From Amphiscolops sp. MND2022 (taxonomy: Eukaryota), in contig OZ076409.1 in NCBI GenBank assembly GCA_964187785.1, positions 15,936,001 to 15,996,000 of the forward strand: a stretch of 60,000 bases of DNA, read 5' to 3'. A program made the translations under genes and the position numbers. Shown here one piece after another: positions 1 to 59,114 of this stretch (its first letter is position 1; each line of letters opens with the position of its first letter). The notes beneath the pieces are model-generated. The model did no database searches. It was not told where the DNA came from and worked only from the letters and a program-made list of their open reading frames with translations.

Positions 1-2
1 AG

Positions 3-34141: not shown

Positions 34142-34541
34142 TTCGATGTCGTGCAATACACAATTTCAATTGACTGATTTTAATTTTCAGCCAATCAGAA
34201 AACTTGATACATTCAGTCATTGAGTCATTCAGAAGGCACTGATCAAAAGTCGCTCGTGGAATCTTTCTGCCTCGATTATTAGAGCATCGATTGTCCTAAC
34301 CTTGATTACAAGATTTTAAAGACGTACATGTAGTTGAAACAAAATTCCGGAGCAACAATTATATCATATCAATCAACTCGTTGCAAAACGTAGAATTTTC
34401 AAAAAATTTTCTCGGCCGAGCAAAATGCACTCAAAACTAGCCAAGCTCGGCATGAACTCATTGATCTATCTCGTCAACTTCACGACAATTATGATTTTGA
34501 ATTATTAACGAATAGCTTCGATAAAGTCAATTACAACTAAC

Positions 34542-36429
34542 CAGCTTCACTGTAGTTAGAAGGACTGATAACAGAAATGACCGAAGGGTCATTCAAATAG
34601 ATCTGATCAAGACTGCTTCCATTGAGATGCTGAATTTGTTTACTACAAACATCAACATTCGTGTTCTTCATCGCTGCGTCCTTCTTCTCGACTCCACACT
34701 TCTTGTCTCCTTTGGCACGAAGGGCGTTTCCGGTCGGGTCATTCTCCTGGTTTGACCTGTTGCCGGTTGGTGATTTAGAGGTAGGTGTTGGCTTCAAGTT
34801 ATTACTGTCTGGAGTTGAACTTTTGTTCATCTGGTTGTTGTTGAGGTTAGCTTCGTTGCAATCGACCGAGAGAAGAGAGTTTTTGTAAGAGGTTGTGTTT
34901 CGATTGTTAGACTCGGCGTTGTTAGTGGGTCTGTTGTTAGCTTTCTGACTGCTGCTGTGTTGACTGTTTTTAGAACTGCTGTTATTTTTTGAGGGTGACG
35001 AGTTCACATTGTGGCTTTTTGAGTTAGGGGAATGTCGCGTTTTGTCATTAGCACTTACTGAGTTTGGAGACTGTTTATTGCATGAGTCTGCTGTTACTGT
35101 AGACTTGTACGCGCTTTCCTTGTTATTGGTAGCGTAGTAATGTGAAGTTGAAAAGTGTTGCTGTTTGTTTTTCGCGGGCATTTTCCTGCCGTCTGAAGTC
35201 GCCATACTGTGGTGTCCCTGTGAAGAGCCTGTGTTGTTTTGAGGTTTCTGATAAGTGTTGCCTGCTCCCTTGTTCAGCTTCTTATTAGGGTTACTTTTCG
35301 ACGAATCTGCAGCGTGGGCGCTTCTGTTGTGGTTACTGCTTTTGTTATCTGAGGAGGGTGAGGTTTTGAACTGATTTGTCGTCGCCGTAGAGGTACTAAA
35401 TACGTAGGGAGTGTCCGTCTGAGGATCGCTACTCAAAACTGGGTCTGAGTGATCCTTGAGTGACTCTTCCACAATTGACGCCCACGAAATGTAGCCGTTG
35501 GTCAAGTCGTCCGTCTTGTCCCCGGGACTGTCATGTTTGGAAATACAATCAGCAGCTGAAATCTGGGAATTGCCCTTGGCCTGTTTGTCGGTAGACGTTT
35601 TGCGAGGGTTGCTCACAACCTCGTCACACATCTTGCCACCGTTGCTTGTCTCTTGTTCCTTTATAGTTTTTATAGCTGTAACGTCCAAGGATTGCTGATC
35701 CTGCGAGCCGTTAATTGCTGCGTGCGTTTTATTTTGAGCAATGAATGAAAATGAAGGAGTGTTCAACTCACAGACGATGTCAGAGGAGGCAATAGGAGTA
35801 TCACTCTCCACGGTACATTGACCAGGAGTAATAGTAGCAGTAGAATTAGTACTGAATTGTGACTGAGTAATACTAGTTTGAACAGCGATGAGCTTTTCCT
35901 CTGCAGTGTTGGCGGTGGCGGCTTTCAACTCCGGTTCACAAGCTGTTGCCTGCTTTGTCCCTGTGCTGCAACTTTTATTGTTGCTCGTCGTCTTTTGCAG
36001 TGAAGCCGACGATGATAATGGGAGATAGGAACAACAAACTGTTTCGACTTCTTTAACAACCACTAAATCCTCTTCTATTGAGTTTTGCTCACAACCACGG
36101 TCGTAAATTGCGCCGTCGTGTTTCCGTTTGGTTGACTCTTTGCTAACAACTGTTGTCAAATGGTCAGTGATAATATCAGGCGTTGGGTTGGGCAATTTAT
36201 TACTATTTTTGTTGTTTTTGTCACTTTTATCCGAGCTACAATTTGAGATTGATTTATCGGCAGAGGAGATATTCTGTGTTTCACTTTGGGTCTCTTGTTT
36301 TATAGAAGTTAGAAATCTGTTTGCAGAGGTTTGTTTGCGTTTTTGCCCAGTGATGTACTGGTAATAACAATAATAAACAGCGGCTAATGTTGATATTCCA
36401 CAGAATGCAAGGATGGAGTGAAATTTCAT
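34542..36429 (-). CDS. AKAP1: AKAP1-like exon 1 (N-terminal membrane anchor and long S/N/T-rich disordered region)
   Basis: MKFHSILAFCGISTLAAVYYCYYQY...QKRK resembles a mitochondrial outer-membrane anchor. The 630-aa ORF ends at a G|GTTAGT donor. The joined CDS is 2985 nt (994 aa plus stop). Confidence 0.85.
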
Positions 36430-41623: not shown

Positions 41624-41847
41624 TCAATCAATTAAAGAAGTTTGCTTCAAGAAGTGAGAGAGAAACGTGACAACAGTTAGGTACAGGCCGAAGAGCGATA
41701 ATAAATATTGCGTCATTGATAAGCTGTGTGTGCTGTCTGTTATCAAAGGGTACAGCCACAAGCCCCGCCGTAGAGCGTCCCGCAGGTGATGAGTAATCCA
41801 GGAATTCAACAGACAAGTGGCCACCAGTAGCGATATTCGCTCATTCC
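41624..41847 (-). CDS. TMEM267: TMEM267-like exon 3 (stop)
   Basis: NSWITHHLRDALRRGLWLYP matches the TMEM267 SWxSHHxRDxxRxGLW motif. Acceptor GAACAG at 41849-41848. Confidence 0.85.
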
Positions 41848-43265
41848 CTGTTCCAGACATGCGCAAATACTACATTTAGTCCCAGCTTTAATTTCATACT
41901 TTCTCTAAACTGCTCTAATGTTCGGAATTAATTACTTTCTAACGAAAAAAAAATGAGCATAAATTGACCAGTGGCGGTTGAAAACGAAAAAATTAGCTGA
42001 CTGACAGCAGAGTCCCATCGTTGAAACGTTCCACGCAGTTTTATAGCCATTAAAATATTTTAACCCTAACTGACCCGCGCACGTTTGCAAATTTTCGAAA
42101 AATTGGATCAAAATTTTTCAATTGTTAATATGTCTACAACTATAAATACCAAACAAATGAGCTAGAGCGCTTTTGTAACGTCTGATACTGGGCTTTCATT
42201 TTGGTTTCTGCGCTCCTGTAGCCGGTGCCCTATTCTTCAGAATTTTAGTTTTTTCCGGTACGGCCGCTTCTCTGCCATTGCTCACTTCGTGCAGCCTGCT
42301 GCGCGGTGACTTCTAATAACAACAGCATATTTCTGGCTTTGTAGCACAAGGTTTAGTTGTAAAAGGATTTGGAGTTACCTTTCTTTATGGGTGGAAAATA
42401 AAAAAGAAAATTGGATGTTGCCAAAAAGATATTTGGAAAAGTATAAACATTTTTTGCTTTTTTGCAAGAAGAACCCTATTTTCTTAGCTTTGCAGAAAAA
42501 TTCTTTTTTGCTAATGCCTGTGCCGTTCAAACCAAACAAATTGTTACCTAAAAACGAAGCTAAAGAGTATGGGCTACTGGCAAAACGAGTCAGGAGCTGA
42601 AAAAAAGGTCGGGTACTTTAAAGTACCGCTAGGTTATTTAGGATTAACCCGTGCCCTTTGGAAAAACAAGCCGGGAACGGCATAAATCGTAATGCCCTCT
42701 TAATGCTCAAAGTACCCCGACGCCTTAAATAGTTTTTGAATAGTTCTGAATCTCCAACAAGGACAAAAATTGTAAGGAACCGTTTCTTGTTGGGTAGAAA
42801 AAGTAAAATCATCAGTTAGCCTCAAAAAAGGCCGAAGAATAGGAAAGCCTAGAGTTTCAGTTTTTATATCCGAAGTAATTGTTATATTCGTTATATTAGA
42901 AACTGGAATTAGTTCAATTTGAAAAATTGAACACCCCGGCATTGGTTCGATTCGGATCCCTAATTTCCACCAGGCAGGACGCAAAAAAAACGAAGAAACC
43001 ATATTTCGGAATTTACGACATATCCGGAATTTATCACCGTATAAACGATACAAAAAAATCCGAAAACAGTAACTGCAATTAGTTTGATCAAGTTTTAAAA
43101 GATGAACACCCTGACGTTTGATGGATTTGTACCAACTCCTGCCTATCAAGACGCAAGAAAACGAGAGAGGCGTACTTTTGGCGTTATAACAGGATTATAT
43201 CACTTTATAAATACGTTATAGCCGGAAACGCTATTCCTATAGTTCAAAATGGAAACAAATAGTAT

Positions 43266-43338
43266 TGGACCTGTGCAGGATTCGACCCCACGTCCTGCTG
43301 ATTCTCCGGCTAACGATGTAACCACTAGGGCATCGGGC
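43266..43338 (-). mobile_element. tRNA-derived SINE-like head or tRNA pseudogene
   Basis: Minus strand reads CCTAGTGGTTA (A-box) ... GGGTCGAATCC (B-box) at tRNA spacing; stems are imperfect. Confidence 0.45.
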
Positions 43339-43949
43339 TTCACTCTAAGGCAATTTGGCCTTCGGCACAAAATGGTCACTTCAACCGAAATGAAGAAAAA
43401 CACGACGAAAGACCACTATAATATACGTGGTTTATTTCATAAGGCATCGAATAAAAATGTGATAAGCGAGACTGGCGATTCCTTCAACAGGACGATTGCT
43501 AAGAAACAATATTTAAAAGGTGAATTGAATTACCTTGAATTTGAGTCAGCGATGAATTTAACACTGAACGATTTGAATTGAAGAAATTCACGAATCGTTC
43601 TGCATAATTATGGCACGGTCACAAACAAAGCTAGCATTGGGCTGAAGTTTATTTTCGGTCGTGTTTGTGACCAAAACCTGGTCTGTCAGCTCAATTTTCA
43701 TAAAGATCGCTCAAGAAAAATTGAGGTGTAGTAGTTATACTATTTTGATGTCAGAATGTATCAGAAATGATAATGCCTGAGAGGTTCAACTTGCTGTCCA
43801 ATTAATAGTGGACTAGATTTGTTGCACTCGTGACAACCCTTTTCAGCAGCAAGTTCGATTGGTTTGAGGCGACAAAAATGTATAATTATTTCAACCCAAA
43901 GCAAAGCTTCAAACAGCATTTTCCAGCATGTTCTTTGCTTGAGTCGGAA

Positions 43950-44192
43950 TAAACAAGTCGGTGCCAAAAAATGTAAAAGAGGGAACACTTTGGGATTTTT
44001 AAAAATCGATTCTGTTGCAAAATATCAAAAAAAATCGAAGGGGAGACAATTTAGTTTATTAAAACATCGAAAGGTGGAACCGTCCTGTTTTGTATGTCAC
44101 GCTGAAAAAAAGAACAACTAGTATAATTCAGATCTCTGGGCCAATTGGGCAAAGTTTTCTGGGCCAAAACTTCATGAAGCGCCGACTAAAAA
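43950..44192 (-). mobile_element. Short Helentron/DINE-like element
   Basis: AAGTCGGTGC ... ATGAAGCGCCGACTAAAAA; the interior resembles the other copies. Confidence 0.55.
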
Positions 44193-44470
44193 TGAATTCT
44201 CATCGGCAGATCCAACCATTTCCAAATTTGACGATTCAATTCGAGGACGGCCTACTAAACATTAGCACATCTTTAGTTTCGACCAAGCAGAACTAAACAG
44301 GCGAATAGTACAAATTAGTGAACTTCTACCGCCAACAAAGAGAAAGGCAATAAATATATTTGAAAAAACAACTGAAATTTACTGAGGAACAGAAGAAATT
44401 ACAGCAATGTAAAGTTGAATATCATACAAATCAGGGGCCAAAGCCGACAAAAGTCCATTTTTGCGCATGC

Positions 44471-44638
44471 CTGTTGTGATCCATTTAACTGAGAGATATG
44501 TAAGAATTGCGATAGTGAACACCAGTGGAGTGTTATGAAGAAATGGTCTTTTGCTGAGAGACGTGGCTGCTCCCAGACTGAAAGAACGGGCAGCCAAGAA
44601 ATGGTCCAGGTCCAAAATTGAGCCCAACACAAGGGCGA
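44471..44638 (-). CDS. TMEM267: TMEM267-like exon 2
   Basis: ALVLGSILDLDHFLAARSFSLGAATSLSKRPFLHNT matches the TMEM267 IDxDHF...RPFLH motif. CAG acceptor with CTAAC upstream; inferred GC donor at 44470. Confidence 0.87.
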
Positions 44639-45306
44639 CTGTGAGCGCACGTTTCGGTTAGTTCATTTTTCAAGTATCAAAGAACAAATTATCGTCAACT
44701 CTTTAGCAAGCTTTGGAAAAAACAGGGCAGTTCTAAAAAGGTGTGCACTTTTTTTAGCAACTGATGCTTTAATTCGAGTTTCAGAAAATCTGATTCAACT
44801 TCAAATTTTCTTTTCAAAACTCTCCGAGTTCAATCTGCTTCAAAAAACTTCGGACAGAATTGACTAAGCAGCAACGTGATCAAACTCTGATCCATTACAT
44901 TTCAGTTATATAACGGTTTCATTGAGAACAGCAGATTGACAGTTTAATTTAGAACATCTTTTCTTCGCAAAATTACTCTTTCTCATGTTGAAATGCCACA
45001 AAACATTAAGCTTGGAAATCAGAAAATTGCACAGAATCGCACAGAAAACTCCATTTTATATCTCACTATATGTCAATTCTAACGATTTGGGATATACTTT
45101 TTCGCAATAAAAATGCCGATCACAATCTAGAGTAATCAAGAACTTTCTCATTCCACAGAAACTAGAAGGGTACAAGAATTCAAAAATAGACCACAACCGA
45201 AAACTAAATGTTTCCGAGAAAATTACCGTTGAGCGAAGGAAAAATGTTTCTAATGAGGAACTTACCATTTCTACAGCTTCAAACAGTTTCTTACCTCCCT
45301 GCAACA

Positions 45307-45326
45307 ATGACTATGCCAGCGTCGTA
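45307..45326 (+). CDS. Calmodulin-like EF-hand protein, putative exon 1
   Basis: ATG ACT ATG CCA GCG TCG TA|GTAAGT. The phase 2 donor matches the acceptor at 54124. The start codon is uncertain. Confidence 0.55.
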
Positions 45327-45352
45327 GTAAGTAACATTCAAAAAACCAACCA

Positions 45353-46409
45353 TGTTGGCGCCAGAGATTGAGAAACCAACTTGAACATATTAGCTGGAAA
45401 TCTTGAGTTACAAAACTTTGTAAAACACTCGAAACTCATAACCATAATTCACTAACCTGTGCTGTTGTGAATATTTGAAGTCAAATGATTAATTTGGTAA
45501 TGGCGCTTAATGTTTGTACCGAAGTTCATTGTACTTTGACTCTATTCGAACGAGAGCGGTGGCGTGATTTGAGTCAAATGTTATCTATCCTACCTATCGG
45601 TCAAATTGCCGTTCATATTGCAGTTTCATTGATAGATTTACCTCTTTATGGAAAATTTTGGAAGGAATTTCCAAATTAGAGGTGTGAGAGGTCCGAAAAA
45701 CGTGATGGAAAAAGTGATCTTATGTAATTTTGTTATTTGAATATCCTGTGATTTTAAAGGTTATCAACTGTACATCCGCTGAGTAGAGTATAAATTTGAC
45801 CAATTTTGATACCATATTCAGAACGCTAATTAAAATATTCTTGAAACTTAAATGTCTTTGACAGCTGTTGAGTAGCTACCCCGGTTCCGGTTTAGACAGG
45901 TTGTGACTGGGAGGGTAGCATTGCACTACTCAACGATCGAAAAAATAAACGATCAGCTGTTTTAGGAGTCCAAATCAATCAGAAAAGTACTCTTGAAATA
46001 GCTTCATTAGGCGTAGTAGGTCTAAGATCTAGGAAAGCGTTCTATTATCGCTCATCGTAGTAGCGAGATTAAAAGCTCATCGTAAGAGCTATTCAATTGA
46101 AACGACAACCCTCTTTGGAGGCTTGGGTGGAAACAATCCGTTGAGGACGATCAGTTGCTGTGGTTGAGCGTACGACCTCCGGACAACAAGAGGTGAAGCA
46201 GATTTCCAGTCAAAAGAGGGATTGGGATCGAAGTGTTGCTTAGCCTGAAGAGTCTGGTGTTGAGGAGCACGAAGCCGCTAGCAGCTGAGAACTCATTGAA
46301 CAGATACAGTCCTTTAGAAAGTTTGTTCCTGCTTTTGGCCGAAGAAGTGGGAAGGATCAGGGACCGGCAGAAAGCTCAATTCCGCTGTAAGATTTGAGCG
46401 GCCGTTACA
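45353..46409 (+). repeat. 5' LTR (1057 bp)
   Basis: TGTTGGCG...CCGTTACA; matches 52881-53936 apart from one A in a homopolymer. Confidence 0.97.
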
Positions 46410-46428
46410 TTTGGTCCGCCGACCCGGA
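46410..46428 (+). promoter_or_regulatory. Primer-binding site, probably tRNA-Tyr
   Basis: TTTGGTCCGCCGACCCGGA directly after the LTR; it resembles the tRNA-Tyr-type PBS TGGTCCTTCGAGCCGGA of Bel/Pao elements. Confidence 0.75.
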
Positions 46429-46470
46429 CACTATTTGATTCGGAAATTGGATTGGAAATCGAGAAAGAAG

Positions 46471-49400
46471 ATGGCTTCGAACGTAATACCGGAGCTCGAT
46501 ATAACATGGTTCAAGGACGACAAAAGGTTGAAGGACCTGAAGAAGTCAGGTGATCTTGCCAAATGGAAAGCTGGCGTTGATGCCCTAGATAATAGCTTCA
46601 AAAACTTGAATGTGATTGTCTCAACAGATGAATTCAGCAAGAAAACTGACTGGACTCCAGATACCAAACTGGTCGTCTTGGGGAAATTCTACAGTGAATT
46701 CTCAACTGAAAAGCAGAAGTTCATGGACTTGGTGACCTCGATCACATCAATGTTGAAAACAAAGGCACTTGAAGAGCTTTTAGCTCATCAAAAACGAATT
46801 CTTTTCGGATTGGACAAAGCAGTGGAGCTATGGACGACAAACAACGCTGCCCTCAAATGGATTGTCAAGAAATCAGAGCTCCTCATAACCAAAGCATCTA
46901 TTGTGGAATATGGGAAGTTGGAAGACAAACAACGAGACATTCTTCAATCCCAAGCGGAGTTGAAACGAGAGATAAATGCTTTGATCGGACAAAAGGACAG
47001 AGTGTCAAAGATACGTCAACTCCTTCAACGGTTTACTCATAGACTAGAGGAACATAGAAAGCTTCAACAGCAGAAGCGGCAACTCATCAAACCTCTTTTG
47101 CTCACTTTACAAATCGAGGAAGCTGATGAGCGTGCGCAGGAGAAAGATCTACTTGGCTGGCTGAGCTACCTGAACGAACGCGAGGAGCAAAATGCCAGAG
47201 ATAAACAAAGTCAAATGGTTCATCAAAATTTCGACTTACCGGTGGCATCGAGGGAAGGCGAAGAACGCGTCCAAAATGTGGAGACAACAATGATACTGTC
47301 AGACAATGAAAATGAAGACGCTGAGCGCGTTGCCGGGCAAGGAAATGCTGGAGCCATTGGAGGAACTCCAGCAGCGGACGTTCCCACGGAGGAACCTAAC
47401 CCTAATGTAGGGGCAGCTGAAGTCAGCGTTGTATCCCCTCAAAAGGCATTCCCGATCACAGAAGAGCCAAAGGATATCATGGGCAGCGCTAGAAAACAAT
47501 TGGGATCAATTCCTTCGTCTCGATCGTCTCGGAGACGTGTGGAACTTGAAGCACAAATCTTCGAAGAACAAACAGAAGCTGAGATCAGAAAGAAGCAGCA
47601 GGAGATTGAGTTGAAACGGAAGCAACGAGAGATGGAATTGGCAATAGCAAAGGAGGAACTAGAATTGGAAGAGATGACCCGCAAGAAACAGCTTCATCTG
47701 AAAATGAAGAAGTTGGAAATAATGGAGCGAGCATCATCGAGATCTAGCATTTGCAGCATGGATCATTCTGAGACTGAGAAAGCCGCGACTACAAAAGATT
47801 GGTTGGAGTCGTCGAGGAACCTTTTCAATCACTCGAACGAGGACCAAAGACAACCGAACCTATATGTGAAGAGTGAAGAACAAGGCACATCATACGACTT
47901 CAATGACGACCAAGAGTATGTTTCAAAGGACCCATCGTTGCCCGGAAAACAAACAGACGTCAAAAGGAAAACGATTAAGTTCAACCCTGAGAGGATGTTT
48001 GTACCTCAGACAATCTCAACGCCCGCTGCGAGCAACAGCCCATTAAAACAATGGCAACGTAATCAACCGTTGGCAACAACATCATTCGGAGCTCTTCCAG
48101 CAGTAATGCCACCAATGAAACTACCGAAACTGGTTTTGGACAAGTTCGCTGGAGATCCTCTCGAGTGGCCTGAGTGGTCTGGGCAGTTTCTAGCAACTGT
48201 GGATCAAGCTGGAGTACCGGACAGTGTCAAGATGAACTACTTGAAAACTCTTGTAACGGGAAGAGCGAAATCATCAATAGACGGCATGGGCTACTCTGGT
48301 GGCATGTATCAAGTGGCTTGGCAAACACTTGAGCAAGATTTCGGTCGACCAGAACTTGTTGTCAATGCACAACTGAAGAGGATCCACTCTTACGGATTCA
48401 TCAAATCTCACGATTCAGTGGACATCATAAAGTATTCGCAAGTGGTTTCTGGATGTGTCAATGTCCTCACTCAGTATGGGTATGAAAGTGACATTGCTTC
48501 GGAGTCAGTGCTTAACAGTGCAGTAAGGAAACTACCAATCGAGCTCAAAAATAAATGGCTCTCTCACCTGCAACGATTCGACCCGACATACAAGAGCTTG
48601 AGGGTGTTCAGCGCCTGGTTGAAAAACATTGCTCAGGTACAAGAGAACATCCGCTTACAGTTCGGAAATGCAGGTGACAAGACGAAATCAACAACAAACA
48701 AAGACAAACCGAAGACAACCAGTTTTGCTGCTTCGACGGACTCCTCCACCAAAGGCAAACCCTCGTGTCCATTGAAAGACGGGGAACACAAGTTGTGGCA
48801 ATGTGAATTGTTCAAAAATATGAAACTAGCTGAACGATACGAAACGGTGAAGAAATACAACTTGTGCTTTTCTTGTCTCAGTTCCGGTCATCGCATTGGA
48901 CAATGCAAAAGCAACAGACTTTGTGGCAAGAATGGGTGCGGTAAACACCACAATCGCCTGTTGCACAGTGAAGAGAAACCAGATAGCAGTAAAATGGAAT
49001 CGAAAGGAGCGGATGGTGAGCAACCGAATCCAGTAGCCATCGCGAACTCATGCAGTGGGAGTCTGCAGATTGTGGCTTTGAGATTGTCACATGGAAACAA
49101 ATCGTGTGACACTTTGGCTATTTGTGACACGGGTTCTACGCTATCCTTCGTTGACGCAACACTGAAGAAAGAACTTCAAGCACAAGGTACTGGCTTGACT
49201 CTCAACATTGCAGGGATCAATGGCACGAAACAAATGCAAAGCGAGAAAGTGAAATTGGAAATCACAACTCCTACAGCTCGAGAAACTGTTTTGTTTCATG
49301 TGCATCCAAGCATGTTTCTGGGGAACAAGTCTTACGATTATCACTCTATCAAACAGAAATACAAACATCTAGATGTCCTACCAAATGCAGTGTTCGATTT

Positions 49401-52400
49401 GAGCAAAGTCAAGGTGGTTCTTGGGCAAGATAACTACCATTTGCTCTATCCAGTGGAATACAAGAAGGGACACAAAAATGAACCATGGGCGGTCAGAAAT
49501 AAACTGGGATGGACGCTCAGTGGCCCGCTTCCGAAACATGAAGTGGCCAATGTTGCATCAGCTACGAGTCATCTGGCATCAGAAGATAGTGAACTGAGCG
49601 TACAGCTAAAGTCCTGGTTCAGTATGGAATCATACGCGACGAGGGTGAACGTCAGCGGACGGTCAAAGGACGATAAAAGAGCTTTGGCGCAGTTGGAACA
49701 AACAACTAAATTGGTCGATGGTAGATATGAAGTCGGCCTACCATGGGCAGAAGATAACCCGAAGATCGAAAACAACTACTTCTCAGCGCATTCACAATTT
49801 TGCTCTTTGGAAAGACGCTTGGAAAAGGATCTTTCATTGAAAGCTAGATATCGAGACACAATTAAAGTAGATCTGGAGAATGAATATGTCAGGAAACTGG
49901 ATGAAGAAGAACTTGGAGAAACGAAGGATGAGACTCAGTGGTACGTGCCTCACCATCCCGTGATAAACCCTCACAAACCAGAGAAAGTCCGAAGGGTTTG
50001 CAATGCTGCAGCGAAATTTCGAGGAACTTCTCTGAACGATATGCTTCTCACGGGACCTGACCTCCTTCAAAACTTGGTGGGAATCATCTTCAGGTTCCGG
50101 GAGCATCCAATTGCCCTTACAGCTGACATAGAAGCGATGTTCTTGCAAGTTAAAGTGCCACCGCAAGACTGCAAGGTGTTACGTTTCTTATGGAGGAATA
50201 ACCCGAGTGATCCGATCTCCGTGTATGAATACACCCGGCATATTTTTGGAGCAAAGAGTAGCCCAACTTGTGCTAATTTTGCGCTGCAGAGAAATGCGAA
50301 GGACAACGAAAAGGACCACCCCATGGCGGCAAAAATCATCCAAAGGAACTTCTACATGGACGACTTTGCAAAATCAGTAGAGACTGAAGAAGAAGCACGT
50401 TTTGTGTACCAAGACGTGAGAGAGACATTGAGGCTCGGAGGTTTTAACTTGTTGAAATGGATCTGCAACAGTGAAGCTGTATGTAATTCGATACCTGAAA
50501 AAGATCGATCAGACGCAGTCAATAAGACCTTTGAGGCAGAGCCGCATACCTCTTCGCTTTTGGGACTTCAATGGAAAGTAGAAGCAGACGAACTTGAAGT
50601 TTGCCGTGGAGCTGACAAAGAAGTGCCAGTGAAAATCACTCAGAGAGCAGTACTCTCTTTCGTAGCCTCTGTCTTCGACCCACTTGGACTATTTGCACCA
50701 TTCACAATGAGAATGAGGATGTTGCTGAAGACGATCTGGGCGAAGACAGGTCAACAATGGGATCAAGAAATTGACATTGATGATCAGACAGTTTTCCTAA
50801 CATGGGCTAACGAGTTGAATCAATTGCCAAGTTCTCCACTGAGACGCAGATACTTCATGAGCCAGTTTGATAAAGTGGACTTGCACATCTTTTCAGACGC
50901 CTCTTTGGAATCCATGTGCATTGTTGCGTACATAAGGGCTCTTACACCAAGCGGAACAGAAGTTTCATTCGTGACGGGAAAGTGCCGAATAGCCCCAATG
51001 AAACAACAAACTATACCCAAGCTGGAGCTGCAAGCAGCATTGTACTCGGTGAGACTTAGGCAGCTGATAGAGAAGGAACACGACATCAAAATGGATTCAG
51101 TGACCCATTGGACGGATTCAATGACAGTGCTGAGGTGGCTTCATGCAGCACATAAGAAACAACAGGTGTTCGTCGCTAACAGAGTCGGGGAAATACTTGA
51201 TCAATCAACTGTAGACGAGTGGCGACATGTGAAAGGCTCCATGAACCCTGCGGATATTGGAACTCGAGGTGTCACTCTTGAGCAGTTGAGAGAAAGTGAG
51301 TGGCTACACGGGCCGGCCTGGTTGCAAGATGAACCGGAGAACTGGCCAGAGCAGCAGTTAGTCGAACACGAGGACGAACAAACATGGACTATAGCTTCCA
51401 GAGAGAGTATTCTTGATTGGACTAGATTCAGCCAATTCAAGCGATTACTCAATATGCTTGTCTACTGTCGAAGAATCAAAAACAAAAGAAGAGGACCCTT
51501 GATGCCCGATGAGCTGAATTCAGCAGAATTGACGATCCTGCAACTCTCACAGCGGGAGAGCTACCCTGAGCTGTATGAAAAGCTCATCAAAAGTAGTGGA
51601 AAGCCTGCCAAGAATGACTTGGCTAAATTGTGTCCATTTCTAGACAAGCAGGGCACAATTAGACTGAAAGGACGGCTGAACAAGTCAATGCTTCCTGATG
51701 AGACGAAGCATCCAATTCTTCTTTCAGCTAAACACCCTGCGATTGTTCTTCTCGTGAGACAAGCTCACGTGGACAATCATCATGAAGGAACTGAGCATGT
51801 CAGAAACATACTCCAGCAACAATACTGGATAACTGGACTCAGAAACGCTTTGAGACGCATCAAGTACAGCTGTGTACAATGTCGGAAAGCTGCTTCACAA
51901 CCTTTTCAACCTCACATGGCAGACTTGCCTAAGGAGCGAGTGCAGCAGAACGTGTACCCTTTCAGCAACACAGGGGTCGACTACTTTGGACCCTTCGAAG
52001 TGACATTCTTCAGGAAGACAGTCAAGTACTGGTGTTGTCTCTTCACTTGTCTAGTCACTAGAGCAGTTCACATCGAAGTCGTGAACGGCTTGGACACAGA
52101 CGCGTGCATGATGGCAATCACGCGATTCATGGCAAGGAGAGGCAAGCCATTGAAAATCATCAGTGACAATGGCACTAACTTTGTTGGAGCTGCACGGGAG
52201 TTCAAAGAATGCTTCAGTGAATGGAATCAAGATGCTATTTCGGAAAATCTTGCAAAGCAGCGCGTCGTTTGGCAATTCAATCCCCCCGGAGCGCCACATT
52301 TCGGTGGTATATGGGAGCGACTTGTGAGAAGTTGCAAAAAGTCTATGATTGCTATCTTGGGAAGTCGACGCTTGACTCTACCAGTACTCACCACAACGAT

Positions 52401-52899
52401 GTGTCTGGTTGAACAGACGCTAAATTCAAGGCCTTTGACGCCTGTCAGTGATGATCCAGAGGATCTAGAGGCATTAACGCCTAACCATTTTCTACTGGGC
52501 AGACCTGCAATTTCGGAGCCATTATTTCCGGATGCATCAAGATACGTGAACTGTCGAAAGCTCTACAAAGCGTCTCAAGCATATCATGAAATGATATGGA
52601 AAAGATGGGCTCGCGATTATCTGCCGCAATGGAACGTGCGACCTAAATGGGGGAGCAATGACGTGCGAGCCCTCCAAGTAGGTGATCTGGTGTGGGTCAT
52701 TGATGAGTCAGTGAAGCGGTGCAAAAATCAAATGGCTAGAGTTTTGGATGTCTTCCCGGGCAGTGATGGAGTGGTTCGATCAGCAAAGATACAGACTTCA
52801 AATGGGATATTCGTTCGACCCGCTGTGAAGCTGGCGCCACTATTGGACGATTGTTTTCAGAGAGAAAACAGGGCCGGCGATGTTGGCGCCAGAGATTGA
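46471..52899 (+). CDS. Bel/Pao Gag-Pol polyprotein (2142 aa from the first ATG)
   Basis: Coiled-coil N-terminus, DUF1759, three Zn knuckles, protease ICDTGS, RT YMDD, RNase H FSDAS and integrase HHCC/DYFGP/SDNG. The stop codon lies inside the 3' LTR. Confidence 0.97.
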   Translation: MASNVIPELDITWFKDDKRLKDLKKSGDLAKWKAGVDALDNSFKNLNVIVSTDEFSKKTDWTPDTKLVVLGKFYSEFSTEKQKFMDLVTSITSMLKTKALEELLAHQKRILFGLDKAVELWTTNNAALKWIVKKSELLITKASIVEYGKLEDKQRDILQSQAELKREINALIGQKDRVSKIRQLLQRFTHRLEEHRKLQQQKRQLIKPLLLTLQIEEADERAQEKDLLGWLSYLNEREEQNARDKQSQMVHQNFDLPVASREGEERVQNVETTMILSDNENEDAERVAGQGNAGAIGGTPAADVPTEEPNPNVGAAEVSVVSPQKAFPITEEPKDIMGSARKQLGSIPSSRSSRRRVELEAQIFEEQTEAEIRKKQQEIELKRKQREMELAIAKEELELEEMTRKKQLHLKMKKLEIMERASSRSSICSMDHSETEKAATTKDWLESSRNLFNHSNEDQRQPNLYVKSEEQGTSYDFNDDQEYVSKDPSLPGKQTDVKRKTIKFNPERMFVPQTISTPAASNSPLKQWQRNQPLATTSFGALPAVMPPMKLPKLVLDKFAGDPLEWPEWSGQFLATVDQAGVPDSVKMNYLKTLVTGRAKSSIDGMGYSGGMYQVAWQTLEQDFGRPELVVNAQLKRIHSYGFIKSHDSVDIIKYSQVVSGCVNVLTQYGYESDIASESVLNSAVRKLPIELKNKWLSHLQRFDPTYKSLRVFSAWLKNIAQVQENIRLQFGNAGDKTKSTTNKDKPKTTSFAASTDSSTKGKPSCPLKDGEHKLWQCELFKNMKLAERYETVKKYNLCFSCLSSGHRIGQCKSNRLCGKNGCGKHHNRLLHSEEKPDSSKMESKGADGEQPNPVAIANSCSGSLQIVALRLSHGNKSCDTLAICDTGSTLSFVDATLKKELQAQGTGLTLNIAGINGTKQMQSEKVKLEITTPTARETVLFHVHPSMFLGNKSYDYHSIKQKYKHLDVLPNAVFDLSKVKVVLGQDNYHLLYPVEYKKGHKNEPWAVRNKLGWTLSGPLPKHEVANVASATSHLASEDSELSVQLKSWFSMESYATRVNVSGRSKDDKRALAQLEQTTKLVDGRYEVGLPWAEDNPKIENNYFSAHSQFCSLERRLEKDLSLKARYRDTIKVDLENEYVRKLDEEELGETKDETQWYVPHHPVINPHKPEKVRRVCNAAAKFRGTSLNDMLLTGPDLLQNLVGIIFRFREHPIALTADIEAMFLQVKVPPQDCKVLRFLWRNNPSDPISVYEYTRHIFGAKSSPTCANFALQRNAKDNEKDHPMAAKIIQRNFYMDDFAKSVETEEEARFVYQDVRETLRLGGFNLLKWICNSEAVCNSIPEKDRSDAVNKTFEAEPHTSSLLGLQWKVEADELEVCRGADKEVPVKITQRAVLSFVASVFDPLGLFAPFTMRMRMLLKTIWAKTGQQWDQEIDIDDQTVFLTWANELNQLPSSPLRRRYFMSQFDKVDLHIFSDASLESMCIVAYIRALTPSGTEVSFVTGKCRIAPMKQQTIPKLELQAALYSVRLRQLIEKEHDIKMDSVTHWTDSMTVLRWLHAAHKKQQVFVANRVGEILDQSTVDEWRHVKGSMNPADIGTRGVTLEQLRESEWLHGPAWLQDEPENWPEQQLVEHEDEQTWTIASRESILDWTRFSQFKRLLNMLVYCRRIKNKRRGPLMPDELNSAELTILQLSQRESYPELYEKLIKSSGKPAKNDLAKLCPFLDKQGTIRLKGRLNKSMLPDETKHPILLSAKHPAIVLLVRQAHVDNHHEGTEHVRNILQQQYWITGLRNALRRIKYSCVQCRKAASQPFQPHMADLPKERVQQNVYPFSNTGVDYFGPFEVTFFRKTVKYWCCLFTCLVTRAVHIEVVNGLDTDACMMAITRFMARRGKPLKIISDNGTNFVGAAREFKECFSEWNQDAISENLAKQRVVWQFNPPGAPHFGGIWERLVRSCKKSMIAILGSRRLTLPVLTTTMCLVEQTLNSRPLTPVSDDPEDLEALTPNHFLLGRPAISEPLFPDASRYVNCRKLYKASQAYHEMIWKRWARDYLPQWNVRPKWGSNDVRALQVGDLVWVIDESVKRCKNQMARVLDVFPGSDGVVRSAKIQTSNGIFVRPAVKLAPLLDDCFQRENRAGDVGARD

Positions 52900-53936
52900 G
52901 AAACCAACTTGAACATATTAGCTGGAAATCTTGAGTTACAAAACTTTGTAAAACACTCGAAACTCATAACCATAATTCACTAACCTGTGCTGTTGTGAAT
53001 ATTTGAAGTCAAATGATTAATTTGGTAATGGCGCTTAATGTTTGTACCGAAGTTCATTGTACTTTGACTCTATTCGAACGAGAGCGGTGGCGTGATTTGA
53101 GTCAAATGTTATCTATCCTACCTATCGGTCAAATTGCCGTTCATATTGCAGTTTCATTGATAGATTTACCTCTTTATGGAAAATTTTGGAAGGAATTTCC
53201 AAATTAGAGGTGTGAGAGGTCCGAAAACGTGATGGAAAAAGTGATCTTATGTAATTTTGTTATTTGAATATCCTGTGATTTTAAAGGTTATCAACTGTAC
53301 ATCCGCTGAGTAGAGTATAAATTTGACCAATTTTGATACCATATTCAGAACGCTAATTAAAATATTCTTGAAACTTAAATGTCTTTGACAGCTGTTGAGT
53401 AGCTACCCCGGTTCCGGTTTAGACAGGTTGTGACTGGGAGGGTAGCATTGCACTACTCAACGATCGAAAAAATAAACGATCAGCTGTTTTAGGAGTCCAA
53501 ATCAATCAGAAAAGTACTCTTGAAATAGCTTCATTAGGCGTAGTAGGTCTAAGATCTAGGAAAGCGTTCTATTATCGCTCATCGTAGTAGCGAGATTAAA
53601 AGCTCATCGTAAGAGCTATTCAATTGAAACGACAACCCTCTTTGGAGGCTTGGGTGGAAACAATCCGTTGAGGACGATCAGTTGCTGTGGTTGAGCGTAC
53701 GACCTCCGGACAACAAGAGGTGAAGCAGATTTCCAGTCAAAAGAGGGATTGGGATCGAAGTGTTGCTTAGCCTGAAGAGTCTGGTGTTGAGGAGCACGAA
53801 GCCGCTAGCAGCTGAGAACTCATTGAACAGATACAGTCCTTTAGAAAGTTTGTTCCTGCTTTTGGCCGAAGAAGTGGGAAGGATCAGGGACCGGCAGAAA
53901 GCTCAATTCCGCTGTAAGATTTGAGCGGCCGTTACA
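52881..53936 (+). repeat. 3' LTR (1056 bp), preceded by PPT-like AGAGAAAACAGGGCCGGCGA
   Basis: Direct repeat of 45353-46409. Confidence 0.97.
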
Positions 53937-54124
53937 AACCATTTGAACAAACTCAAAACTCAATTGGTTGGCTTTTTTCCGAAAAAATGGGACTAGATTT
54001 ATAATTGCATGTACAAGTTGCAAAATGGTAATTCTTGAGAAATGGTAATTTGCATGTTAACTAGACTTAAAACAGGATAAATTAGGTAATCGTTTTAGTC
54101 AGACGAGTTATTCTTTATTTATAG

Positions 54125-54188
54125 CTCCGTTGCCTACGACCATGCACAGCGATTGAAGATGAAGAGCTTGTTCGAAGAATTCGACCAG
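54125..54188 (+). CDS. Calmodulin-like EF-hand protein exon 2
   Basis: Polypyrimidine TAG acceptor; SVAYDHAQRLKMKSLFEEFDQ is the entering helix of EF-hand 1; CAG|GT donor. Confidence 0.8.
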
Positions 54189-55120
54189 GTTGCTTGTTTG
54201 TCCAACTTGAAAAAAACTTGAAATTTTGATCGCTTTTCATCAAAAAAGCGGTGTTAAAAAAGCATCTATTTTCACGCCTTCGTAGGCATTAATAGGCTTG
54301 AGAAACGTCATGAATCCAAACAGTCCGTAATTGCATCCGTAGATAAAAGCACTGTCAAACTGCGGTACATTACGTGCTTTGCTTTCAGAGTAACCGATCC
54401 TATGAAAGCGAGCATACACTGATCCAAATAACAAATTAACGCAGCCATTACGTAAAATTCATCTACATTTGGCATTGAGTCATCGTCCACAGTTTAAAAA
54501 ATGTCCATAATAGAAAAACTAGAATTTTTCTGTGAGGCAAATGTTCAGCAACAGGCGGCGCATGAATACTACTTTAGTGGAGAAAATGAGCCTTAGCAGT
54601 AACAGGCGGTCTTTTCACACAAGAAATCCTGAAAATTGGCTTTAAATTCAACCAATATACCATATATGGCATGATGGTTGCTAATTGAAGGATCAAACGA
54701 GGCGGAGGTTAACATGGAATGATGCGGACATTGCGTCACTCATAACTTTTTATACGGTTACTGACTTGAAATGACGTCACAACATCTATTGTAATTTATA
54801 ATTAGAGTTCAACATTTTTTTGTAGAAAAATGGCAACCACATTAACATGGTTCGAAAATATTCAATTGCATCGTCGTCAACAGTGATAAAAGCTGATAAT
54901 TCAAACCCTCCAGAAAAAGTTTCAACAGTGGCGGCGTTACAAATTCCTCCTCAAAAGCGCGTACGGAGAAGCAAGCCTTTACGCATCAGTGAATACAGCT
55001 CATTCACAAATGTTGCTCGCTAGAAAGCCAGGCCAAGTAAAATCGCTACTATTTCCGAGCCATTTGTTTTATCAAGAAGCATCGAATGAACTTGAAAGGC
55101 AACAAGCAACCGCGGAATAG

Positions 55121-55198
55121 GACAACAGCGGAAAACTAGATTGCCGAGAGTTCCAACTGCTGCTTCAAAAGTTCGGCATTTCTTTGCCATACGACCAG
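55121..55198 (+). CDS. Calmodulin-like EF-hand protein exon 3
   Basis: DNSGKLDCREFQLLLQKFGISLPYDQ completes the loop DQDNSGKLDCRE begun in exon 2; 78 bp, phase 0/0. Confidence 0.82.
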
Positions 55199-55711
55199 GA
55201 ATAGTTGAAAAATTTTCAGCTAAGCAAAAACTGAATGCACAAAATTACCGAAAAAAAGATATTCAGCGACGATGCAATCCTGACTTGCAACTTGTATGTT
55301 TTATGCAACAATTTTCGACGAATTCAAAACGCAGGAAAGCGTCATTTTCGGACAGAATGACAAGATTTTGAAGTCTTACCTCCTCCAATTCGCAGGAACA
55401 GTTGAGACAGATAATCTGTAACTGCTAATTTGTAACGGTAAACTTAAATATTTTTGATCGATTTGAAACAAATGAGTGACCTTGAAGAACGCACGTCGAA
55501 TTTGATATTGTTTTAAACGGATTTTACCGTACATATTCGATTTTTCACAACCCTGAAAAACCAGTGACAAAAAATTGAAGATTGGTCAGCTCGGTTTAAA
55601 TTTCAGAATTTTTGAATTTCTTGGCTCAGAGATACGATGGCAACTTCAAGTATTCAAAGTGCCCGTTTTTCATCTCAGTTTTTACAATTGTCATTCTTAC
55701 CTTAACTTGTG

Positions 55712-56109
55712 TTTTTAGACGGCTTTTCTTTCAAGGAAAAGTGTCCGAATTACAGTGATTAGTTTTTTGTCAATCTCACTCTGAATAGTCTTTTTGTGCA
55801 CGGTGCACATTTATGATAGGTACTTAGTATTTAATTTTGAACGCAACGAAAGCCGTCCCGCTTTCCAGTTTTTTTGGCACTATGAGATTTTCCCCTTTTG
55901 GCTTTGTGAAATTTTTTTTGAAAATTATTGTCTCCAAAGGGTTCCCCTCTCACGTTTTTTGGCACTACGAGACTTCCAAAATTCTTCTCTGTTTTCGACA
56001 CTTTTTAGTGAGTTTTTCATAACAAAACGTCCTGTGCATATTTCATAAACTTTGCGCTTTTTGAGCCTTAGGTATAGCGCCGACTTGGAGATGTTGCCGT
56101 CTTATTTTT
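55712..56109 (+). mobile_element. Non-autonomous Helentron/DINE-like element in EF-hand intron 3
   Basis: TTTTTAGACGGC stem-loop at the start and AGCGCCGACTT plus a hairpin at the end. It is a reverse-orientation relative of 12111-12590. Confidence 0.65.
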
Positions 56110-56145
56110 GAACCAATTGAACAGTATTCCTGCACATAAAAATAG

Positions 56146-56490
56146 TGTGTGAAATGCATCACGGAACAAACAGGCGGAAACGAGGAACTAACGTTTGAGG
56201 ACTTTCTAGACATCTACCCGAAAATCAAGCCGAAAAGTTTCGAAGAGGAGATCAAAAATGCGTTTGAATTGGTGGATTTGGACAGAAGCGGAAAACTGGG
56301 TCGAGACGAGATTAAGGCCATGATGATATCGGCAGGCGTGAAAGACATCACAGACGCCGAAGTAGAGTTTCTTATTTCTGAATACGACAAAGATGGCGAC
56401 GATGAATTGAACTTTGATGAGTTTAAGGCTTTCATGATGGATGACATATCAGATAACAGGATTTTCAAATCTGCAAACAACCAAATTTGA
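56146..56490 (+). CDS. Calmodulin-like EF-hand protein exon 4 (degenerate EF2, EF3, EF4, stop)
   Basis: Loops DLDRSGKLGRDE and DKDGDDELNFDE; TAG acceptor at 56143-56145. Confidence 0.9.
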   Translation, partial: CVKCITEQTGGNEELTFEDFLDIYPKIKPKSFEEEIKNAFELVDLDRSGKLGRDEIKAMMISAGVKDITDAEVEFLISEYDKDGDDELNFDEFKAFMMDDISDNRIFKSANNQI

Positions 56491-56815
56491 CTCGCAGACT
56501 GACGCTAATCATCTTGAACAAATATTGCAACACTTTTGTCCAGCAAAGTAGATTCAGATTTCACACTATACTCGCAGTTGCGGTGTTTGGATAGAGTTGT
56601 TAGCTGATTATTGGGGGATGGCGGACATGAAAACATGGACACGCGATTAATCATGCTTTAGATTTGCATTCCAGTTCGTTATTACCCCATTTTGAATAGT
56701 AAACTTGCAACCGATTAGTCATGAAATTGCTAAATTTTTAGAACGAATTGGCTGTTTTGTTTCTAAGGTTCCGCATAATTGTTTTCTAAGGTTCTGCCTA
56801 CAGTGAAGAAGTTAA

Positions 56816-57301
56816 CCATAAATGGACGAGGAAATTTCTGGATCCATCCAAAATTTTGGTACTTAAATTTCAAACCGCAATATCTCCTAAATTAATCAAC
56901 TCCGACAAACGATTTATGGCCCGTTCTAAAGAAGACAATCAGGGCTTCGCCACACTGGCTCCGGACTTTGCGACAAAACTTTGCACGCCTCGCGTCTCTG
57001 GCTGCATTTCAGCATGTTTCAAAACATGCTAGGGCCACTTTGACCCAATCTTGATACTTCAGTGGGATAAAGTGGCCACACAAGAAAACAGGAAAATTTG
57101 CACTCATTTTTTTGATTTTTTGGTCCCGTTTCCTTGATTTCGGAGACATCAAGTCAGTATTCCGTGAAAAGGTGTGCAATGCTATGTAATATCGTCCGAA
57201 AATCTCATTCAAGAGTTTTCTTCGCCATACGGCCAGCTGAGGCCTTCAGAAGTTTGCAGAAACTAACGGTACGAATTCAACCCTATCTCGTCCATTTAGG
57301 G
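56816..57301. mobile_element. piggyBac-like MITE (486 bp)
   Basis: TTAA on both sides and a 15-bp TIR CC(A/C)TAAATGGACGAG. Confidence 0.8.
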
Positions 57302-58894
57302 TTAATTTAAAAGGAAATTTTTTCGAACAATAAAATACAGCCAGAGTTGGCTTTCAATAGAATCAAAAAAATTAAATCCAGAATCAGTTTATATTGATTT
57401 AAGAAAGAAAATATATTTCATCTCAATTAAGAAATTCAGGAAAATTTGATCAGAAAACATTTTCTTGTCTTCGACGACAATTTCATGAAGGAAAACAAAT
57501 TATACAAAATGGTAGATTAATTGAGTCAAAAATTGGGTCAATTCCGTTGAATTCAATCAGTAATCAATATAATTTAAAATCTGATTACATCAATTATAAA
57601 AATTTGATTTTCTATAATTTTGTTTCCTCCATAGGTTTGTTGATTATGATCTATATTTGATTCAAGAGACAAAAAAAAGCGGAGTGGCATTGAGATACTT
57701 TTCTCGAGGGTTAGCAAAAACGTATAAACTTATACAAGGAAAGTTTCGGCTTATATACATGCCTTCACCTGACCAAAACCTTGCTATGATAAATGGTCAC
57801 AATACTGAAATATTTTGTAGAATACGTCGAAATGGCAACGTCGTTCGTCGATAATTTTCAAAAAGTTGGCCGAAGTTGGCTGGTAAAGCAACTGTGAGAC
57901 TTGTGTAAGCATTTAGACCGCAGTATTGAGACCCAAGTGCTTGAAATGAAACATTCACGGATTGCACTGTCCAGGAATAAAATGGTATCCTTCAATTTTC
58001 TCGGTTTGCATTGCCATACTCAATAGGATAATACCTCGAAGGACATTTAACCCCAGTGGAAGACGGTATTGCAACAATAATAATGAACTTGAATGCATGT
58101 ATTGAACTTTTTGCCAACACAACGAATTCAATTCATTTCAATGCCTGAAGTAGAAGTTTTTTCGTTTACAGCTACCATAAAAATAATTATGCACTTTTTT
58201 GAATTTCAAATTTATTTTTACAATATTTTGCAAATTGTCGTAATTCAAATCCTTTTCCTTACCATAACACGTGAATTAAAATCAGCAATCGTCTAAAACA
58301 AATATATTGAAAAAACAAAATACATCAAATTTAACCACACACTTGTGCGTGATTGAACAGTCAATTGATTAACTTAACGATGCATTAACAGATTCAGTAT
58401 ATAAACCTGCGGTCTCGACTGAAATTAATTTTTCGATGCATGAACAAGCCATCGAATAACTAGTACATAATAGGTAAAAATTCCTTTTCCCTAACACGAA
58501 GTTTTTCGTTTGAACAAAACATTTTCACACACTTTGAATATGATTGTCTTGTCTCTGAGTTAACCGTTTTTACTACTCAAGAGAAAAAGCTGTTGACTTA
58601 CTATTCAGGAATGCGTGACTTCATAAGAGAAATAGTGTCAACAAATATTTATAGCTGGAACCTAAAGCTACTGCCCGTAGCTGCTCCCGCGTCTTAAACA
58701 ACAATTACCAAGTTAACAAAATATGGGCTCGCGATCGTCACGATGTCTTCTACTATTGAAACGGTTCGACTTTAAAATCGTTTACACAAACTTTCAGGAG
58801 AAATTAAACAGAAGATCGAGTTAACTATTTGAATCAGCTAGTAAACTGATCACGTCTAAAGATTTTAAAGTCCCAAGATTTGCAGCGAACTAAC

Positions 58895-59114
58895 CGAAAC
58901 ACAGCATGAAAGAATCGAACTTTGCATTAACCATTGCGATTGTTACCCAAGAGAGCATACTTATTAAAGCATGCAAGCTGTTATCACAGACAGCTCGCTT
59001 CAAACGACTTTGGTCATTCAGAGTAGGAAAAAAAGGTTGTTCTATTAGCCAACAGAAAATCAGGAGTATACACTCACAGCAAACCGACAGGATCTGAACA
59101 AGACTTGGTACCAT
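58895..59114 (-). CDS. TMEM267: TMEM267-like exon 1
   Basis: MVPSLVQ...LKRAVCDNSLHALISMLSW matches the TMEM267 RAxxDNxxHxxIxxxSW motif. The G|GTTAGT donor (phase 1) fits exon 2. The joined CDS is 612 nt. Confidence 0.87.

Follow-up and report, generated by a model that had tools for sequence, protein, structure and literature searches.

A minority of introns in the 1.07-Gb animal assembly of Amphiscolops sp. MND2022 have ends that are reverse complements of each other, and the best-documented members of this class are transposon insertions spliced at their duplicated target. Four such introns lie in a 60,000-nucleotide stretch of that assembly (hereafter the window; C1:15,936,001-15,996,000), two in a TMEM267-like gene and two in an EF-hand gene. 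The class is real and genome-wide, amounting to about one tenth of the introns that we sampled, and three introns outside the window are directly shown to derive from elements with terminal inverted repeats (TIRs). As to the four introns inside it, we favor, with slightly more confidence than doubt, the explanation that they are "transposon-footprint introns", belonging to a genome-wide minority class of insertion origin.

Inverted repeats at the ends of four window introns

The TMEM267-like gene has three coding exons on the minus strand, and its first intron houses a complete EF-hand gene on the plus strand together with a BEL/Pao element (coordinates in Table 1). The exon junctions of both genes were placed from open reading frames (ORFs) and homology only. 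The original prediction, made from the letters of the window, held that two introns in each gene carry around the donor a segment whose reverse complement ends shortly before the acceptor; its EF-hand introns 2 and 3 are called EF-hand introns A and B here. All four inverted repeats were found where they had been proposed: 14 of 14 bp in TMEM267 intron 1, 14 bp with one G-U pair in TMEM267 intron 2 (10 uninterrupted Watson-Crick pairs among them), 11 of 11 in EF-hand intron A, and 8 of 8 in EF-hand intron B. To gauge their significance, each acceptor window was shuffled 20,000 times. The resulting P values are <5e-5 for TMEM267 intron 1, <5e-5 for TMEM267 intron 2 with one G-U pair allowed (3.5e-4 for Watson-Crick pairs only), 3e-4 for intron A and, as the highest of the set, 0.012 for intron B. 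Chance pairing is thereby ruled out as the origin of the four stems. Duplex energies lie between -22.6 and -32.2 kcal/mol in three of the four introns and at -14.5 in intron B, against a mean of -11.6 kcal/mol for non-cognate pairings (see below). BLAST of the terminal 400 nt detected no complementarity beyond the stem cores, and the repeats are sharply bounded.

The donors of TMEM267 introns 1 and 2 and of EF-hand introns A and B begin GTTAGT, GCATGC, GTTGCT and GAATAG, i.e., they are GT, GC, GT and GA as claimed at the outset, and none of the four introns has a U-rich 3' end. The stems of TMEM267 intron 2 and EF-hand intron B have CA...TG as their outer pairs, and a 6-nt direct repeat, AACAGG, can be read from the sequence at both junctions of TMEM267 intron 2. 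The ordinary introns of the window had been said to lack such stems, which is borne out by the four canonical introns of a TDRKH-like gene: these have GTAAGT-type donors and U-rich CAG acceptors, and no junction stem was found in any of them. A 13-bp hairpin does occur inside an 85-nt TDRKH intron, at a distance from either splice site.

Several simpler sources of the complementarity were considered and rejected. U12-type signals comprise a donor /RTATCCTT (a slash marks the splice site) and a branch site TCCTTAAC; these features are not present at the four window donors, and U12-type introns are excluded by the donor sequence. Complementarity between the donor and branch-site consensus (GTTAGT versus ACTAAC) covers no more than 6 of the 14 bp in TMEM267 intron 1, and bidirectional splice signals are likewise true of that intron only. 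Excision of the repeat-bounded segment, in place of the modeled intron, is in frame for both TMEM267 introns yet adds residues absent from all homologues, and it breaks the frame in both EF-hand introns.

A genome-wide class of introns with paired ends

We sampled introns by genome-wide Pfam searches (Cpn60_TCP1, Tubulin, and HSP70) in which neighboring exon matches were paired. Junctions were placed by frame, family length and the pattern G(T/C/A)...AG, nine of them being set by hand from the conserved protein frame. Four of the 86 exon pairs were dropped (one insertion of a long terminal repeat (LTR) element, one mispaired exon, and two ambiguous cases), leaving 82 introns with 73 GT, seven GC, and two GA donors. 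Each was scored by the duplex energy between donor positions -9 to +30 and the last 45 intron bases, and the null distribution was formed by 8,010 non-cognate pairings of 90 curated introns (the 82 sampled plus eight from the window). The donors of these 90 junctions are GT in 79, GC in eight, and GA in three, and all end in AG. The small contigs C1383, C908, C1751, and C1226 were kept in the sample; additional CCT and tubulin genes lie on them, GCTAGT being the donor in some, and they may be haplotigs or another organism's DNA. The dropped LTR case is an HSP70 paralogue (G000:C3:36746137-36764241) in which an exon is interrupted by 15.9 kb of inserted DNA with TG...CA ends and a 5-bp target-site duplication (TSD), ATTGT, and which we classify as an LTR element instead of an intron.

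A comparison of cognate with non-cognate pairing by donor type, suggested by the original prediction as a check, separates non-GT from GT donors. Five of the nine non-GT introns fall beyond the first percentile of the null, versus none of the 73 GT introns (Fisher 4.6e-6). The mean energy of the non-GT introns is -21.6 kcal/mol (Mann-Whitney 1.2e-5), whereas the GT introns are indistinguishable from the null (-11.8 versus -11.6 kcal/mol), and Watson-Crick runs of at least 9 occur in three of nine non-GT and zero of 73 GT introns. The absence of polypyrimidine tracts noticed in the window also extends to the class: among the last 25 intron bases, T makes up a fraction of 0.24 for the 11 stem introns, against 0.48 for the remaining 79 (P = 6e-7).

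In 10 of the 11 stem introns, the four of the window among them, the 3' splice site is the first AG downstream of the 3' arm. The position of the 5' arm is less uniform. It was expected to lie across the exon/intron boundary, as it does in all four window introns, whereas only one of the seven stem introns outside the window has it there and in the other six it starts at intron positions +2 to +16. The offsets of EF-hand intron B, with 3 exon bases in the arm and 13 nt to the AG, recur in a tubulin GA intron on C7, and the arms of the two introns start similarly, CAGGAAT. The stems are nevertheless not copies of one repeat, as had been proposed: in an all-against-all BLAST of 12 stem introns none were related except two, the CCT introns on C8 and C13 described below, which rules out a single element family behind all stems. 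A family search with the tubulin GA intron gave 19 matches, weak and partial, to its 3' part.

Transposon origin of three sampled introns and a possible role of the stems in splicing

The two related introns lie in different CCT genes, at C8:57287705-57288081 (GC-AG, 377 nt) and near 9337553 of C13 (GT-AG, 586 nt). They are homologous and belong to one ~330-bp repeat, for which a first look gave 2,708 candidates; the 40 that were scored are all 76-82% identical. Six genomic copies were fetched; every one starts CAGAGTTTTGACA..., ends with the reverse complement of that start, and is flanked by an 8-bp TSD with 6 to 8 of 8 bases matching. Because of the 8-bp TSD and the CAG ends, both known marks of such elements, we take the repeat to be a hAT-type miniature inverted-repeat transposable element (MITE). 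No splice-like target preference is visible in the six TSDs. The duplicated 8-bp target is also present in the CCT genes, matching at 7 of 8 bases on C8 and 6 of 8 on C13. The donor is cut after base 6 of the left TSD copy, whose bases 7-8 supply the GC or GT, and the acceptor is cut after base 6 of the right copy, where the AG lies; both introns consist of two TSD bases, the element, and six TSD bases. The two cuts fall at the same position of both TSD copies and therefore remove the element plus one TSD, restoring the old reading frame. One end of this MITE family is also found in the window at ~30073, within a TDRKH intron. ORFs of 508 and 92 aa at 13039-14834 of the window resemble, presumably, a hAT-family transposase, judged by a C-terminal motif, and may represent the autonomous partner of the hAT-type MITE.

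The third case is CCT5 (C3:83.59 Mb; G000:C3:83590279-83597603), a gene of two coding exons whose sole intron is a 5.7-kb GC-AG intron. Its inverted repeat has a 12-bp perfect core and pairs at 14 of 15 positions when extended to CA...TG ends; the TSD is 8 bp long (GATAAAGG / GACAAAGG, 7 of 8 matching), and a U-tract is absent. The GC donor is made of the last G of the TSD and the first C of the TIR. The protein P0020 (542 aa, from a 1,846-nt contig, 99% identical) is continuous over the junction DKG/IHP, and since the intron would not fit into a contig of this length, the contig most probably derives from assembled mRNA. The nearest named relatives of CCT5 are 76-78% identical and belong to various animal phyla. 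The lack of any further intron in CCT5 suggests that this one was gained by insertion. More widely, CA...TG forms the outermost pairs in eight of 12 stems, as it does at hAT ends, and four of the eight curated GC donors, including that of TMEM267 intron 2, start GCA, as a donor formed at a TSD/TIR boundary would. Another CCT gene (G000:C1:33715344-33716813) is a single open frame of 547 aa, and several HSP70 and tubulin genes are intron-poor; hence, intron loss may be widespread in this genome, and CCT5 may have lost all introns but one of transposon type.

Under the explanation that we favor, a DNA transposon with TIRs would insert into an exon, and the insertion would be tolerated since the spliceosome would excise it through improvised sites at its edges. 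The donor would arise at the TSD/TIR boundary, where G/ followed by G and the first C of a CA... repeat yields GC; other forms would be GT or, just inside the repeat, CAG/GA. The acceptor would be the first AG past the far repeat, usually from the second TSD copy. The intron's 3' terminus would then be transposon end plus target DNA, which on this proposal is the reason for the missing polypyrimidine tract, and the two inverted repeats would pair in the pre-mRNA and close the intron. By analogy with the CCT cases, the window introns likely arose in the same way, from elements that are now unrecognizable. The original prediction had offered gain from diverse TIR elements as one of its readings; this has been confirmed for the three introns outside the window and has found no such confirmation inside it.

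A number of observations weigh against extending the insertion origin to the window. A genome search with EF-hand intron A, or with intron B over its first 500 nt, yields the query itself as sole candidate; the opening stretches of TMEM267 intron 1 (~228 nt) and intron 2 (~300 nt) are unmatched elsewhere among the 40 candidates scored of 387 and of 2,301, respectively. The arms of intron 1, A, and B have no visible TSD next to them, and the AACAGG repeat of TMEM267 intron 2 is mostly expected from the splice consensus alone. With window introns that have single-copy ends and no clear TSD, we can only infer their transposon origin. The offset sums are 6, 3 or 11, 8, and 10 for intron 1, 2, A, and B, so that an 8-bp TSD restores the frame exactly for intron A only, and the window 5' arms take in 1-6 exon bases, unlike the three proven cases. 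TMEM267 intron 1, moreover, is 14 kb long with a whole gene inside. In the wider sample, a strong stem is missing from one tubulin GA intron and from two GC introns of the small contig C1383, the non-GT junctions were deduced from protein conservation (two of nine set by hand), and transcript-like support exists for CCT5 only, from a P0020 contig that its source does not label as RNA. The repeats that the window introns do contain are nested insertions in their interiors, at about 42052-42648, 42786-43459, and 43958-44156 in TMEM267 intron 2 and about 55702-56112 in EF-hand intron B. The repeat at 42052-42648 (~600 bp) has many copies of ~70-74% identity and forms a tandem array at G000:C4:74817078-74821275.

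The other reading of the original prediction, a stem that stands in for U2AF-type recognition, survives in part: it is possible, and we put it forward tentatively, that the helix joining the region of the 5' splice site to the final 6-15 nt ahead of the acceptor is itself a splicing signal, replacing the polypyrimidine tract and U2AF and licensing GC and GA donors. An inverted-repeat transposon landing in an exon next to AG/G would then be spliceable at once, metazoan intron gain would be ongoing, and selection would preserve a perfect stem in an otherwise decaying element, TMEM267 intron 1 and EF-hand intron A being examples. A role in splicing is favored by the tie between stems, weak donors, and missing U-tracts. 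The 3' arm sits in the AG-free zone that is normally home to the branch site and the pyrimidine tract. Minimum free energy (MFE) folds of whole introns retain the closing helix in EF-hand intron A (16 pairs), TMEM267 intron 2 (29 pairs), and five of the six folded stem introns outside the window. The chances appear about even that the helix is needed to bring a weak donor to the branch/acceptor region. Four points count against a functional helix. Folding of the whole intron disfavors two helices, one of 8 bp in intron B and one of 11 bp in the tubulin GA intron; the MITE-derived stems have already decayed, with mismatches; U1 should have to compete with a helix that covers the 5' splice site, which would need opening for U1 and U6; and a shared cause, young insertions, would explain the association of stems with weak signals without any function.

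That last argument belongs to an alternative that we regard as rather unlikely, namely that the stems are neutral relics, leftover TIRs whose helix is idle in introns with GC or GA donors and U-poor acceptors that the spliceosome tolerates. The transposon origin of three class members fits this alternative, as do the shared cause, the mismatched TIRs of the MITE-derived introns, and the two helices unpredicted by whole-intron folding; a discovery bias, by which perfect stems are noticed preferentially, would work in its favor as well. The window stems are difficult to accommodate, however: they are perfect (14/14 and 11/11) in introns whose remainder has no detectable relatives, in a genome where the MITE copies are just 76-82% alike, and decay to unrecognizability should have broken their 22-28 paired bases too. 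Perfect 11-14-bp stems amid unrecognizable sequence are thus unlike neutral decay, and we lean toward the window introns being old insertions with stems kept by selection, a view to which the discovery bias applies.

It is improbable that the stems evolved in place, in ordinary or old introns that lost the pyrimidine tract in a genome rich in repeats and gained a donor-complementary segment (e.g., by template-switch) that was selected as a U2AF-independent bridge. Such a course would agree with the single-copy ends of the window introns, which have no TSD, with arms that are perfect and sharply bounded, and with the exon bases in the 5' arm, which are unlike a transposon end; it also has a precedent in zebrafish, where structure replaces U2AF2 (PMC4691745). 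It is opposed by the clear TIR and TSD signatures of other class members, by GC donors of the form G/GCA, which suit a TSD/TIR boundary, and by the single intron of CCT5, which points to gain by insertion.

Introners, as Huff reportedly described them in 2016, are non-autonomous DNA transposons that turn into introns. Their mechanism involves TIRs and a TSD, with the element edge supplying the donor and the TSD the AG (PMC11282704), and a survey of 3,325 genomes lists them in only two animal groups (Gozashti 2022, PMC9860276). The mechanism in the CCT genes is this introner mechanism and is already known: the C8, C13, and CCT5 introns share with introners the TIRs at their ends, the TSDs at their junctions, a GT or GC donor from the element edge, an AG from the TSD, and a restored ORF. 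The window introns, in contrast, are single copy with no clear TSD, whereas introners are multi-copy with a TSD, and the MITE found here is a general genomic repeat as opposed to a specialized family.

The original prediction knew of no similar arrangement in animals, a claim that does not survive: MITE introns in the tunicate Fritillaria borealis (PMC11282704) and hairpin introns in zebrafish (PMC4691745, PMC9024468) precede it. The Fritillaria introns are MITE-derived, with TIRs and TSDs (Henriet 2019, as related in PMC11282704), and have non-canonical ends, species-specific positions, and removal by a U2-type spliceosome (PMC11282704, PMC13326754). They resemble the present introns as animal introns with TIRs. 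They differ in their borders, the main classes there being AG/AC and AG/AT, with a YAY triplet and only 5% GT/AG introns (Soo 2026, PMC13326754), whereas 90 of 90 junctions here are G(T/C/A)...AG, resembling the GV/AG class that the same excerpt lists for other tunicates. In the zebrafish (AC)m-(GU)n introns, a helix joins the splice sites and neither a polypyrimidine tract nor U2AF2 is needed (Lin 2016, PMC4691745; PMC9024468). The likeness lies in the predicted helix bridging the splice sites and the missing polypyrimidine tract of the window introns; on the other hand, the zebrafish arms are dinucleotide repeats, whereas ours are unique and different in each intron, and dependence on structure was shown there by experiment, whereas here it is a proposal.

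Two further systems also have paired inverted repeats. In the nonconventional and intermediate introns of euglenids, short inverted repeats near the ends (often CAG/CTG) pair and draw the ends together, the junctions have TSD-like repeats, and a MITE origin is suspected (PMC11282704; PMC12501133); the nonconventional introns are released as circles after conventional splicing, by a mechanism described as unknown (PMC11282704). Inverted repeats near the ends and their pairing are features that the introns studied here have in common with them, although euglenids are protists and their borders are not the G(T/C/A)-AG of all 90 junctions here. For the symmetrical stwintrons and introner-like elements of fungi, a TIR stem is predicted in which the G's of donor and acceptor lie next to each other and the branch site is masked, and such stwintrons are still removed by ordinary consecutive splicing (PMC9024468). 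A predicted TIR stem at the intron ends is again the shared feature, whereas the fungal introns form sequence-related families and are canonical GT-AG. A literature search of limited extent, which does not prove absence, brought up no report of animal introns that combine G(T/C/A)-AG borders with stems of unique sequence.

The origin of new introns in animals is a long-standing open question, and this genome offers clear cases (the only intron of CCT5, and two CCT introns made by the hAT MITE) next to single-copy introns of older appearance in which the stem alone is kept. A functional stem would join the transposon origin of introns with an RNA structure replacing U2AF and would account for the source of GC-AG and GA-AG introns. 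If it is neutral, it would still be a useful marker for dating intron gains. The G/G·CA geometry, i.e., a GC donor composed of the last TSD base and the first TIR base, is a checkable rule.

Gene models and other elements of the window

A phmmer search with TMEM267 exon 3 returned 19 relatives, and the homologue P0006 carries the name TMEM267 from its source. When the spliced model was compared with six full-length and two partial homologues, junction 1 was gapless and junction 2 had one extra residue in the model. The acceptor of intron 1 is the sole AG available upstream of the conserved exon 2 frame. A relative, P0003, has a 240-aa ORF unbroken across both intron positions and is possibly cDNA-derived. 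A word-based homologue search with exon 2 gave no match, and a metagenome scan with the same exon gave two weak matches (48-50% identity over ~31 residues), which we guess to be unrelated membrane proteins. The EF-hand model, aligned with calmodulin, shows a single one-residue gap, located at the GA junction. When EF-hand exon C was searched against proteins, the matches were all ORF calls of one exon from a genome ~98% identical, and these are silent on the junctions; the nearest EF-hand paralogue is only 37% identical, with its introns at other positions. The proteins P0021-P0023 and P0140 represent relatives of ~98% identity, and further relatives are 94% and 84-86% identical. One calmodulin-like paralogue (G000:C6:25290000-25298500) has a 5.2-kb GT intron that was left out of the statistics. 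Its donor, G/GTTGGTT, resembles that of EF-hand intron A and pairs with GACCAACC, 15 nt before the AG, in a weak stem of 8 bp including one G-U.

It is highly improbable that the models are wrong or the genes dead, with the repeats marking insertions in pseudogenes or the true splice sites lying elsewhere: although the window genes were modeled from open frames and homology and one sampled HSP70 "intron" proved to be an LTR insertion with a 5-bp TSD, every exon is open and conserved, TMEM267 junction 1 is gapless where excision of the repeat-bounded segment would add two residues, exon 2 is preceded by no alternative AG, the GA and GC junctions give exact family lengths in the tubulin and CCT alignments, and P0020 confirms one junction of the class, that of CCT5.

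Table 1. Exons, introns and inverted-repeat arms of the two window genes (window positions; a slash marks a splice site).
Feature	Position	Strand	Remarks
TMEM267 exon 1	58895..59114	-	ATG at 59114; ORF and homologue alignment
TMEM267 intron 1	44639..58894	-	14,256 nt, G/GTTAGT...CACAG/
TMEM267 intron 1 5' arm	58887..58900	-	6 exon + 8 intron bases; 14/14 with 44651-44664
TMEM267 intron 1 3' arm	44651..44664	-	ends 12 nt before 3' splice site; branch-site-like ACTAAC inside
TMEM267 exon 2	44471..44638	-	ORF and homologue alignment
TMEM267 intron 2	41848..44470	-	2,623 nt, G/GC...AG/
TMEM267 intron 2 5' arm	44460..44473	-	3 exon + 11 intron bases; 14 bp, one G-U
TMEM267 intron 2 3' arm	41854..41867	-	ends 6 nt before 3' splice site
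TMEM267 exon 3	41627..41847	-	stop codon 41624-41626; phmmer relatives and alignment
EF-hand exon A	54159..54188	+	coding; calmodulin-like 150 aa model
EF-hand intron A	54189..55120	+	932 nt, GT-AG, single copy in genome
EF-hand intron A 5' arm	54188..54198	+	1 exon + 10 intron bases; 11/11 with 55101-55111
EF-hand intron A 3' arm	55101..55111	+	ends 9 nt before 3' splice site
EF-hand exon B	55121..55198	+	calmodulin alignment
EF-hand intron B	55199..56145	+	947 nt, GA-AG; 5' 500 nt single copy
EF-hand intron B 5' arm	55196..55203	+	3 exon + 5 intron bases; 8/8 with 56125-56132
EF-hand intron B 3' arm	56125..56132	+	ends 13 nt before 3' splice site
EF-hand exon C + stop codon	56146..56490	+	Pfam EF-hand_7, E = 1.4e-15

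The BEL/Pao LTR retrotransposon within TMEM267 intron 1 (45353-53936) has one open frame of 2,193 aa containing a Pao peptidase, reverse transcriptase, and integrase. Its LTRs of ~1,057 bp differ by 0 mismatches and one gap across 1,058 aligned positions and are flanked by a 5-bp TSD, AACCA; the element looks like a very recent insertion. A second BEL/Pao-like element occupies 1-10600 of the window, with a doubled gag-like part (709-4154 and 4237-7334, near-identical) followed by a pol frame of 1,108 aa. The TDRKH-like gene lies on the minus strand at 26500-36444 and has KH and Tudor exons and a long low-complexity first exon. A 76-nt stretch of the TDRKH region (33515-33590) recurs, inverted and 100% identical, at 43778-43853 in TMEM267 intron 2.

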